Below are positions 16,390-19,995 of a stretch of DNA of 25,794 nt, piece after piece. Location: positions 17,048-42,841 of the forward strand of contig CAYLZE010000038.1 in the NCBI GenBank assembly GCA_964388035.1. The letters run 5' to 3'. The DNA is from an uncultured archaeon. Lineage in GTDB: Archaea; Asgardarchaeota; Lokiarchaeia; Sigyniarchaeales; SOKP01. Positions within the stretch are counted from its first letter, which is position 1. Every line of letters begins with the position of its first letter. The translations under genes and the position numbers were made by a program. The notes beneath the pieces were generated by a model. The model did not search any database. It was given only the letters and a program-made list of their open reading frames with translations, and was not told the origin of the DNA.

Positions 16390-16621
16390 TTAACTTATTT
16401 TCAAATTTAGTTTTATTCAATAGTTTAAAAAGTATTAAAAATTCTCTTTTTCTACTCGATCTATTCAATGAATTACATTCATTCTAAAATAGTCTTATTT
16501 TTACTGCGAGATTTTTTAGAAAAGTTATTCAATCCTCATGATTCGTGAGTTAAAATCAAATTATGTTTAAATCCTTTTAAAATACGTGATATAAAAGAAA
16601 AAAATGGTCCCCTCTGCCGGC

Positions 16622-16653
16622 TTATCATCCATGGTGATCTCAAGCACGTGGAT
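16622..16653 (-). other. tRNA intron at non-canonical position 59/60 in the T-loop (32 nt, strict BHB)
   Basis: GCCGG-ATCA-AA|A-TCCA...TGGA-TGAT-AA|G-CCGGC: outer helix, 4-bp central helix, two 3-nt bulges and inner helix. Mature T-loop is ATCAAAG. Confidence 0.9.
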
Positions 16654-16675
16654 TTTGATCCGGCGACCGCTCGGT

Positions 16676-16729
16676 GTCCTGCTGACATATTTTCATTGGA
16701 ATAAACTCCTTGATATGCGATATGATTAT
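16676..16729 (-). other. tRNA intron at canonical position 37/38 (54 nt, relaxed BHB)
   Basis: CTGT (32-35) can pair with intron GCAG. 5' bulge is AG|A and the 3' side is GAC|A before CCGAG. Excision gives the anticodon loop CTGTAGA. Confidence 0.85.
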
Positions 16730-17092
16730 CTACAGCCGAGCACTCTACCAGTCTGAGTTAAGAGGGGTTATAAAAAAAATATTTATGATGAGTACAATAA
16801 TTATTTAATACATTTATTTTTTTTGATTGATCCATTATCTTGAGCTCTGCTATCAACTCCTCTTCACCTATTGCAGAACATAGCTGTACTTATAAAAATG
16901 ATTAGTTCCCATGCTATTCCATATTTTTTTTATGCATGGAACATATTAAGTTAGTATTCCATGTTATTAAATAAAGTTTAGAAATTACTATCTAAAAAGA
17001 TTTAAAAAAATATTAGGAATCAAAAATTTTAATATCTAAAAGTATTACTAGATAGATAACATTTTATATGAAATTTATGGAGAAAAATCAAA

Positions 17093-17632
17093 ATGCGAGA
17101 AGAAACGGATTATACTGAGGCATTAGAGGTCTTTAAAGACGATGAAAACGTGATCTTGGAACCATGGGGGAGAAGTATTGATCATTTACGATTGACTATT
17201 ATCGGGAAAGAAGGTACGCCATATGCTAAAGGAAAATTTGTATTCGAAATTAAATTTCCTGACAATTATCCTTTTCAACCTCCATTAAATTAGTCTAGTC
17301 GACTAATTTGGAGAAATGCATATGCGGTCACCTTGATGTGGCATCCCAACATAGATTCTTCAATCCCACCGGGAAAATTAAATATCTGCTTGGATCTACT
17401 CAATCCTGATTTAGTCGGGAAAGTTGATGCGGCTTCAGGTGCTTCAGGTTGGACCCCTAGCAAGACTCTAACAAATATTATTGAAGCATTAAAAGGAATG
17501 ATGCACATGGAGCCACCCTTTTTCAATCCCGGAGATCCTTTAAACCATGAGGCGGGGGAGCAATATTTTCGTTCTCAAAAAAAATTTATGGATCAAGCGA
17601 AGAAGTGGAAGGACAAGTACGCCATGGATTGA
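17093..17632 (+). CDS. ubiquitin-conjugating enzyme E2, join(17093..17285,17316..17632), 169 aa after removal of a putative 30-nt intron
   Basis: The two track ORFs are in the same frame. Motifs: G..GTPY..G.F...I.FP..YPFQPP, WHPNI, NICLDLL (Cys codon 17387-17389), W.P..TL, P.DPLN.EA, A..W..KYA. Confidence 0.9.
17286..17315 (+). other. putative BHB/BHL-type mRNA intron (30 nt) containing an in-frame TAG
   Basis: CTCC-AT|T-AAATTAGTC-TAGTC-GACTAATTT-GGAG-AA|A: 4-bp helix, 3-nt bulge and perfect 9-bp stem. Cutting after the 2nd bulge nt on each side restores the frame and the E2 motif spacing. Confidence 0.8.
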
Positions 17633-17734: not shown

Positions 17735-18334
17735 ATGAGTCTATTGTCTGCTTTATTTAGAAAGAAATTGATTATTTTTGATTTAGATGGGACTCTAATT
17801 GATTTAGCTGTTGATTGGTCTGCATTAAAAAAAAAATTAAGCATGATGTTTTCCAAGCATTATGGAGATGATTGTAGCTTTAATAGTATCTCCAAATGCT
17901 TGTCGCATATTGTTGATAAGCGGGATGAGCCCATATTAAAGGAATTCTTTCAAGTTATTGAAGAATATGAAAATAAAGAGATCGAAAAGAGTCAACCCAT
18001 TGAAGAATCAATCTATTTCCTTAACCATTTGAGCGAGTTTGTAGAAAATAACACCGTTAAAATAGCAATCATGTCATTAAATACGAGAAGAACCATACAA
18101 AATTCTATTAATTTAATGAATTTAAATAATAAAATTGATTTTTACGTGGGAAGGGAAGATGTCAGGCGTTGGAAACCCAATCCTGATGGACTTTTGAAAA
18201 TCTTGGAACATTTTAATATCAACAAGTTGGATGCAATTTATGTTGGAGATATGAAAAAAGACTTGATTGCGGGAGAAAAAGCGGGAATTGATTCATATTT
18301 AATTGAAGATTTAAAAGAAATAGTTAAAAAGTAA
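17735..18334 (+). CDS. HAD family hydrolase (phosphoglycolate phosphatase-like)
   Basis: IIFDLDGTL, SLN, KPNPDG, YVGD...D..AG..AG. Confidence 0.9.
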   Translation: MSLLSALFRKKLIIFDLDGTLIDLAVDWSALKKKLSMMFSKHYGDDCSFNSISKCLSHIVDKRDEPILKEFFQVIEEYENKEIEKSQPIEESIYFLNHLSEFVENNTVKIAIMSLNTRRTIQNSINLMNLNNKIDFYVGREDVRRWKPNPDGLLKILEHFNINKLDAIYVGDMKKDLIAGEKAGIDSYLIEDLKEIVKK

Positions 18335-18408: not shown

Positions 18409-19995
18409 TTACATGTAAGTAATAATCGCATTATATTTTTTTATTTCGGAATTCTCACGAGCTTTCCCTAAAGGAGTTATATAAATAATATCATTGCTCT
18501 TAATATTTAACAAGCTAAGTTTATAAGTAGGATCTTTAAACTTCTGCATGAGGGGATTCCATATGATTTCTTTTGTTATAGAATTCGTTATCATCCAAGA
18601 TTCTGGGTCTAAGCTTTTATCGATCATCTCCAAGGCTTTGAAAATGTATCCTACATCGGCGTTGAATGGGACTGCTAAGTGAATTGTTTCTTCTCCTTCA
18701 ATTTTTCCGCATGCTAAACAATTTTCTCTCTTAATGATATCGAGCACGTCAAATTGCCCATATACTCCATTATAATTCACGTAAGGAGGATACATGGGTT
18801 CACCAATGTTTCTTCCTTTAACACGAAATAGCAATTTTAATGCCTCTTGAGATTGAATGCTTGCTATGATAGAACTAACGGATTGAATAGCAGGAATCTT
18901 ATTTCCCAAGATATTTTCCATTTCATGAAATTGATAATCCGGGCCGAAGGTGGTTTTAACATTTTCTTTCCATTTTGAAAGTTCCTCTGCACTTAATTTA
19001 TCTCGTTCTTCGGGAGGTATATTTTCTTCAAGAACGCGCTGCCTCAACTTTTCTAATTCCTCTTGTGCTAATTGTTGTAATAACAATACATCTTCGTCTT
19101 TTTCTAAATCTGGCTTTCGCTCAAATTTTTTCTCGAAGTTCACTTCAGCCTTAATAACACAATCATTTCTATTTCTGGGAAGACCTTTTAAAGTACAAGC
19201 GGCGACGAGTTTGTCATCGGGTGGGGGTATTGGAATTAAGCATCTATAACATGGAGTTTGATCCAAAATATTGGGGGCATAGTTTTGTGCAAAATCAGCT
19301 TCTGCTTTGGCTCTCAATTGTTCTTGGAGGGGGTAGATTTTCTCTCTCTTGATTTTCTCGATACTATCTTCTAATTCTTCAATTCTCTTAAGTGCTTTAA
19401 AATATTCGGGATGATCCTCCTCTTTTAAGTTCCATAGTTCCTCTTCAGCTAATCTTTCAATTTCTTTCTCTTCATTTCCATATTTTATTCCACTTCCTTT
19501 AGGAATGATGATTTGCACGTGCCCTTCAAATCCCACCGTTCCTCCTTCAATCATGGGCTTTTTTACTCGTAATGCCAATTTATTTAAATCTAATCGGGCA
19601 TTAAAATTATCTAATGCTGCAATAATCACATCAGATTCTTCATATAGGGAAATAGGTAAATTCTGAAGCTTTTCAAAATGATATTCAACATCTAAATAGG
19701 GATTCATTTCTTTCAGTCTTTCAGCAGCAACTTGTGCTTTTGGCTTTCCCTCATCTCCTGACCGGAATAACATTTGACGGGACAGGTTTGAAGTTTCCAC
19801 CGTATCCAAATCTACAAGGATGAGTTTCTTTATTCCCATTAATGCAAAATCTTTCGCAATTTCACATCCCAGAGCTCCGACGCCAACAATCATGATACAA
19901 CTGGTATTTAATACTTCTTGATCCCATCCTTCAATAAGTTGTTGTCTTGCAAACATTCGTGCTTTAAATAATTGCTCGTTCTTTTTAGAAGACAT
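18409..19995 (-). CDS. ubiquitin-like activating enzyme E1 (ThiF adenylation domain plus catalytic-Cys domain, UBA3/UBA2-like)
   Basis: GVGALG, DLDTVETSNLSRQMLF, ALDNFNAR, TPCYRC, CTLKGLPRNRNDC (catalytic Cys 19197-19195), IPAIQSVSSIIA, CLAC, and a C-terminal possible ubiquitin-fold domain. Confidence 0.9.
   Translation of the reverse strand: MSSKKNEQLFKARMFARQQLIEGWDQEVLNTSCIMIVGVGALGCEIAKDFALMGIKKLILVDLDTVETSNLSRQMLFRSGDEGKPKAQVAAERLKEMNPYLDVEYHFEKLQNLPISLYEESDVIIAALDNFNARLDLNKLALRVKKPMIEGGTVGFEGHVQIIIPKGSGIKYGNEEKEIERLAEEELWNLKEEDHPEYFKALKRIEELEDSIEKIKREKIYPLQEQLRAKAEADFAQNYAPNILDQTPCYRCLIPIPPPDDKLVAACTLKGLPRNRNDCVIKAEVNFEKKFERKPDLEKDEDVLLLQQLAQEELEKLRQRVLEENIPPEERDKLSAEELSKWKENVKTTFGPDYQFHEMENILGNKIPAIQSVSSIIASIQSQEALKLLFRVKGRNIGEPMYPPYVNYNGVYGQFDVLDIIKRENCLACGKIEGEETIHLAVPFNADVGYIFKALEMIDKSLDPESWMITNSITKEIIWNPLMQKFKDPTYKLSLLNIKSNDIIYITPLGKARENSEIKKYNAIITYM

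Follow-up and report, generated by a model that had tools for sequence, protein, structure and literature searches.

We analyzed a 25,794-nt window of DNA from an uncultured Lokiarchaeon (GenBank assembly GCA_964388035.1, contig CAYLZE010000038.1, positions 17,048 to 42,841 of the forward strand), in which the plus-strand gene of a ubiquitin-conjugating enzyme (E2) is interrupted by 30 nt containing an in-frame stop codon. This insert is very probably a protein-free mini-intron of the bulge-helix-bulge (BHB) type that is removed by the archaeal tRNA-splicing pathway. All coordinates are window positions unless given as coding sequence (CDS) or contig positions. In the mechanism that we propose, the pre-mRNA would fold locally, four exon bases pairing with four bases at the 3' end of the intron; an (alpha-beta)2 endonuclease with a loop tolerating relaxed motifs would cut both bulges behind their second base, at 17285/17286 and 17315/17316, and RtcB would join the exons to give the message for a normal 169-aa E2. 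That the transcript is cut and joined in this cell, and that EndA and RtcB are responsible, we infer from sequence. Beyond this gene, we consider it likely that Loki-type Asgard archaea perform routine multi-gene mRNA splicing by tRNA endonuclease and ligase, affecting dozens of protein genes per genome (actin and E2 among them). The ~30-nt introns of these genes would continue to appear and disappear at recurrent hot spots and would probably also pass between lineages. These archaea, as the nearest prokaryotic relatives of eukaryotes, would then possess exon-intron genes, micro-exons included, without a spliceosome.

Borders and fold of the 30-nt insert

The E2 frame starts at 17093, meets TAG at 17291-17293 and resumes in the same frame to TGA at 17630-17632. 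Both halves match the Pfam family UQ_con (PF00179) consecutively: exon 1 (17093-17285; codons 1-64 and the first base of Tyr65), which is collinear with 507-nt intronless orthologues, covers profile positions 19-62, and exon 2 (17316-17632) covers 67-139. Exon 2 carries the HPN motif and the codon of the catalytic Cys89 (17387-17389), which is invariant in E2 alignment A1. Motif and Cys lie within a UBC domain as in members of the E2 family, and enzymatic activity is predicted. The unspliced message would stop after 66 residues, upstream of the catalytic Cys; minus 17286-17315, the reading is free of stops and encodes 169 aa. A first-pass annotation of this DNA had described both the two halves in one frame around the TAG and the 169-aa product of this deletion, and its coordinates all hold. 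The gene is single-copy in this genome and its product is 81-89% identical to most intact orthologues of the family; among database clusters there was no near-identical spliced protein, the best reaching 92-94%. The named relatives of the host are metagenome-assembled genomes of Promethearchaeota (Lokiarchaeia).

Intronless relatives fix the borders of the insert. In 96 distinct intact 507-nt alleles, codon 65 begins with T, A and encodes Tyr without exception (96/96). Eight 30-nt deletions keep Pro-Pro exactly or nearly, but Tyr65 arises only from the one dictated by the BHB motif, and shifting this deletion by one base to either side places Asn or Phe at codon 65. When placements were scored against a profile of the intact alleles, the single best was CDS 193. 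This is the BHB placement, in which the cuts after the second bulge base coincide with the borders defined by homology; among 4000 shuffles of the insert, a single one yields the motif there. As judged from the alleles compared, the junction is set by intronless orthologues, independently of RNA structure. The earlier claim that structure and protein alignment lead to the same 30 nt is thereby borne out, and the intronless PP-Y-x-Y alleles that had been predicted do exist. Intact orthologues encoding a 10-residue loop at this site, named beforehand as evidence to the contrary, were not seen.

The predicted fold agrees base for base with the helix, bulge, stem, loop and AAA described in the first-pass annotation. 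A central helix of four Watson-Crick pairs joins exonic bases 17280-17283, located in the Pro-Pro codons, to intronic bases 17310-17313, with a pairing probability of 0.95-1.0 even within the fold of the whole gene. The 5' three-base bulge (17284-17286) holds the predicted cut 17285/17286, the sole placement that fits Tyr65 in the intact alleles. It is followed by the intron hairpin (17287-17309), consisting of a 9-bp stem (17287-17295/17301-17309) and a loop at 17296-17300, and by the 3' bulge or loop AAA (17314-17316) with the predicted cut 17315/17316. The hairpin has a folding z of -2.8. Its stem is the intron-side helix h', which shows compensatory changes between carriers. The exon-side helix h that would close the 3' bulge forms none of five pairs (0/5), here and in nearly all carriers at CDS 193. 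The motif is relaxed, as the first-pass annotation had stated, although the outer helix it called weak is in fact missing; the form is HBh' and not the strict hBHBh'. The intron itself (17286-17315) is ORF-less, with neither a ribozyme core as in group I and group II introns nor the GT-AG borders of spliceosomal ones; it is 30 nt long, has borders TA..AA and gave no Rfam match.

Carriers of the insert and integrity of the E2 gene

Contigs of three DNA runs (X1 record 1, X2 record 8, X3 record 13) span the insert without differences. Because they do, the insert is genomic and not an assembly error. The runs stem from three salt-marsh studies, and one of them may be the source sample. Run X1 also contains a strain variant with one extra base and hence a 31-nt insert. 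We regard excision at the DNA level, like an assembly artefact, as next to negligible. Alleles that are ~98% identical with and without an insert at CDS 388 (L238 and L239) would suit excision, but the joined form was not among the matches listed for these runs (contigs drop rare variants), the insert lacks terminal repeats, and the fold is strand-specific and uses G-U pairs in relatives. No other copy of the intron within 7 mismatches was found in this genome, which also leaves recent intra-genome copying unsupported. A search of JGI metagenome contigs for the exact spliced-junction pattern gave no match, and the sequencing runs listed as carrying this sequence include no RNA run; neither result carries weight either way. 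Loose ends of X1 and X3 at window position 17515 belong to another organism of the same salt-marsh samples, with a CDS-388 insert known from genome G146.

Among 135 genomes of the family that were searched, 16 have an interrupted E2 gene and ~100 an intact one; E2 is intron-free in ~85% of the family. The genome carriers together with four metagenome contigs provided 25 distinct inserts, which are 29-39 nt long and occupy seven sites (CDS 169, 171, 193, 222, 380, 388 and 436), with up to three inserts per gene and two genes with three each. All four central pairs are formed in 23 of the 25. A strict BHB test, requiring all four central pairs plus four or five of the five inner pairs at a homology-best placement, was passed by 21 of 25 inserts as compared to 0.09 expected from shuffles; kin are not independent in this count, but the seven sites in different exon contexts are. 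Same-site inserts are found at CDS 193 in eight other sequences, and nine distinct ones of 30-32 nt occur there. Their 3' ends stay complementary to the Pro-Pro codons, the inner stem compensates, the loop is free, and the first intron pair is A-U, G-C or U-A depending on the carrier. Variable inserts at one site with compensatory stem changes had been anticipated in the first-pass annotation. Taken together, the distribution of these sequences identifies the E2 gene as an insertion hot spot.

The same inserts bear on translational recoding, in which the RNA would remain uncut and the ribosome would read through TAG (by pyrrolysine or suppression) or hop over the insert as in T4 gene 60. Here the insert is divisible by three, contains a single TAG and places a stable hairpin 3' of the take-off point, all of which suits recoding. 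However, four of the nine CDS-193 inserts are 31-32 nt long and put the downstream exon out of frame, so reading through the stop is ruled out as a general solution. The X1 strain variant breaks the frame as well. Since the junction splits a codon (phase 1), a hopping ribosome would find no matching codons for take-off and landing, and relatives offer no intact 10-residue loop. A PylS search of the genome gave nothing over the cut-off, and an ARAGORN call of tRNA-Pyl has a tRNA-Gln body with a 37/38 intron. We therefore hold recoding to be very improbable.

It could also be argued that a hairpin-shaped insertion has killed the E2 gene while a second paralogue does the work. The in-frame stop precedes the catalytic Cys, and an intact paralogue with 39% identity is indeed encoded on contig C42 of this genome. 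Both paralogues are, however, retained in most relatives, and random insertions would not fall in the BHB register. The same-genus genome G001 carries a 31-nt insert at the same site as this genome (G000). Between their spliced CDS the proportion of synonymous differences (pS) is 0.73 and that of nonsynonymous differences (pN) 0.026, the same holds for each exon alone, and the values are within the range of intact control pairs. The inserts are ~80% alike: the stem is retained, the loop is altered, and other changes appear as wobbles, including a G-U variant in the 3' strand of the central helix. Because pN is this low relative to pS between two insert carriers (pN/pS <0.04 at near-saturating synonymous distance), the substitution pattern indicates that the interrupted gene is under selection in both exons and is no pseudogene. 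Like breaks in the genes for actin, nadE and cdhA, described below, point in the same direction, and the chance that E2 is a pseudogene appears minimal.

Some further features of the orthologues were noted. The introns of L031, L119, L123, L131 and L134, which sit at different sites and in different genera, have a loop motif in common (ATCTC or ATCTT), which may reflect a shared origin or a preference for this loop. Bin G118 holds two copies of the E2 orthologue (L127 and L128), one with three inserts and the other with a different single insert, and possibly represents mixed strains. The aligned first codon is ATC or ATT in 54 of 112 orthologues (L003-L136), often 3' of a GGTG-like box; these are apparent non-standard starts that would make gene callers report truncated proteins of 108-115 aa. 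A 172-aa member (P0121) among 115-aa proteins was considered as a spliced form and rejected, the short proteins being start-codon miscalls.

Splicing enzymes, contrary evidence and intron turnover

The genome encodes two EndA-family proteins and RtcB. EndA alpha (205 aa, contig C146) carries the catalytic motifs with Tyr, His and Lys, and the other gene (beta, contig C33) encodes a structural paralogue. The best PDB match of EndA alpha is the Aeropyrum pernix enzyme, and the crenarchaeal loop with K44/R46 is kept. This loop enables cutting of bulge-helix-loop (BHL) substrates (PMC3241643), and Asgard EndA has been reported as an (alpha-beta)2 enzyme with this loop (PMC5829648). By analogy with the crenarchaeal enzyme (PMC3241643), the host EndA should be able to cut relaxed motifs, and a ligase gene is present. 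Divergent from E2, the window contains a tRNA-Tyr(GUA) gene (16605-16767, minus strand) with two introns: an anticodon intron of ~54 nt, whose borders (~16676-16729) are less certain, and a canonical BHB intron of 32 nt at 16622-16653, in the T-loop. It is missed by Rfam and called by ARAGORN only once both introns are removed; tRNA-Tyr was called near E2 in 16 related loci. Given the T-loop intron, this cell must splice outside the anticodon loop.

Several observations weigh against EndA-dependent removal of the insert. The lowest-energy fold is a register slipped by one base with a 5-bp helix (-13.8 vs -13.1 kcal/mol), so that the slipped form is predicted at ~75% and the BHB register at ~24% (about 3:1). 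Cleavage in the slipped register would take out 28 nt and leave the exons out of frame. The E2 insert lacks an exon-exon helix, and in one study the 3' site of the cbf5 BHL motif was a poor substrate for His-tagged A. pernix EndA (PMC3241643). Among the related inserts, four of 25 fail the strict test, one of them badly (L127 at CDS 380, with 1/4 central pairs). Carriers whose first pair is G-C have no register ambiguity, yet their borders are identical, and for this reason we read the slipped register as a possible cost in efficiency rather than a refutation; according to the folding model, the enzyme would need to choose the minor form.

A weak motif may also be put to use. The insert could be a real intron whose rate-limited splicing (weak motif, slipped register) tunes E2 levels in the manner of HAC1/XBP1. 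In line with this idea, the motif is relaxed with two near-equal registers, the insert has been retained over a long synonymous distance, and the 5' untranslated region (UTR) intron of Haloferax affects expression (PMC7714728). A switch of this kind is nevertheless unlikely, as the great majority of the family does without an intron in E2, the positions are spread over seven sites in scattered carriers, and the affected genes share no common pathway. In a tree of spliced genes, which represents one gene and is partly saturated, a single clade was rejected for the CDS-193 carriers (approximately unbiased (AU) test, p 0.0006) and for the CDS-388 carriers (p 4e-51), and several carriers have intronless sisters at high support. 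L238 and L239, which differ by the CDS-388 insert, show few other differences, four of which crowd within six bases of the junction, a pattern suggestive of recombination with co-conversion. Introns may have been gained repeatedly, lost repeatedly or exchanged laterally. Most likely, the intron is tolerated as a nearly neutral passenger; the genome would hold some dozens of these, repeatedly gained and lost where the helix can form.

Further interrupted genes and known introns

The first-pass annotation predicted other interrupted genes in this genome, and this proved correct. For the comparison, ~780 genes were set against 1.3 Mb of sequence from one relative. All four well-aligned frame-breaking inserts were 29-31 nt long and BHB-shaped. 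An in-frame insert of 33 nt in Lokiactin has this shape too, unlike ~75 ordinary in-frame indels. Frame-breaking, BHB-shaped inserts of 29-31 nt that are absent from orthologues interrupt the genes for a Zn alcohol dehydrogenase (C50:19070), a creatininase-like protein (C50:21722), a thiolase-like protein (C65:26311) and cdhA (C199:1791). BHB-shaped inserts absent from orthologues are likewise present in nadE (30 nt, C45:19136), a roadblock gene (32 nt, C66:9415) and a nucleoside (thymidine/AMP) phosphorylase gene on the minus strand (30 nt, C32 ~9854), the latter with a varied form in G020. Lokiactin (C5:43890 region; L210:1391-1423) has two BHB-type inserts, the 33-nt one and a 31-nt one 25 nt on, around a micro-exon, and four relatives lack both. 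Including E2, this amounts to ten inserts in nine genes (nine inserts in the eight others). The survey rate of ~0.7% corresponds to an estimated few dozen inserts per genome, a figure in which conserved genes may be enriched. A genome scan that used no homology and looked for BHB motifs with frame restoration gave 358 hits compared to 366 and 377 in frame-shifted controls and missed the E2 intron; it served for leads only, three of which were verified against orthologues.

A pre-mRNA intron in cbf5 of Desulfurococcales and Sulfolobales was reportedly described by Watanabe in 2002. Splicing has been confirmed for no other archaeal protein gene, and the cbf5 intron occupies one position, was gained once and was sometimes lost (Yokobori 2009, PMC2738675). 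Among the papers searched, one from 2020 (PMC7714728) adds to this only the BHB intron that HVO_1309 of Haloferax volcanii carries in its 5' UTR. The cbf5 intron resembles the E2 intron in being short, ORF-less and located in the CDS with a relaxed BHB border, in its cuts between bulge bases 2 and 3 and in a hetero-oligomeric EndA with the crenarchaeal loop. In contrast to cbf5 with its one gene and one position, the introns described here, for which splicing is predicted, belong to another phylum, occupy seven positions in one gene with up to three introns per gene, affect at least nine genes and have carriers that do not form a clade. The cbf5 family is defined by the catalytic Asp codon of cbf5 in Desulfurococcales and Sulfolobales, whereas the host gene here is UQ_con and the host a promethearchaeote; the E2 intron is predicted to work like the cbf5 intron but is outside that family. 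In eukaryotic HAC1/XBP1, a short intron (26 nt in XBP1) is removed by endonuclease cleavage and tRNA-ligase joining (RtcB in XBP1), with IRE1 cutting at two stem-loops under stress regulation. The proposed E2 splicing shares the combination of endonuclease and tRNA ligase, but HAC1/XBP1 involves neither a tRNA endonuclease nor a BHB motif.

The HVO_1309 intron is located in an mRNA, like the E2 intron, and is cut by EndA, as predicted for E2; unlike the E2 intron, it lies in an untranslated region, is 46 nt long, has no frame to restore and is served by a homodimeric EndA (PMC7714728). The non-canonical tRNA introns of Asgard archaea and Thermoproteales share with the E2 intron the motif, a length of ~30 nt and repeated independent gains where the motif can form, with no general arrival route found (PMC11291895; bioRxiv 10.64898/2026.10.13.758758). 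Both of these papers deal with tRNA genes only, the preprint making no mention of mRNA, and focus on Atabeyarchaeia and Freyarchaeia-type lineages, whereas the E2 intron lies in the mRNA of a Lokiarchaeon. The Asgard intron papers that we found concern tRNAs. A literature search covering few subscription papers found no report of Asgard mRNA introns. If our reading is true, an Asgard lineage splices mRNA as a matter of course, and Asgard annotations must be revisited wherever they list 'pseudogenes' or eukaryotic-signature proteins that are split or truncated. It would also bear on the roots of RtcB-dependent mRNA splicing and on whether interrupted genes were already tolerated, and translation coupled to splicing, in the eukaryote host lineage. 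The E2 gene, in which insertion recurs at seven sites and near-identical alleles exist both with an intron and intron-free, would be a compact test bed for the arrival of BHB introns.

The tRNA-Pyl call mentioned above (G000 C7:54735-54839, minus strand) has a tRNA-Gln(CUG) body, and its 32-nt intron ends in the same six bases as the E2 intron but has a different interior. At a lowered threshold, ARAGORN calls were mostly noise. No ubiquitin-like gene was recognised among the scanned window proteins. A ThiF/E1-like gene encoding 528 aa (18409-19995, minus strand) converges on E2 and a HAD hydrolase gene (17735-18334).
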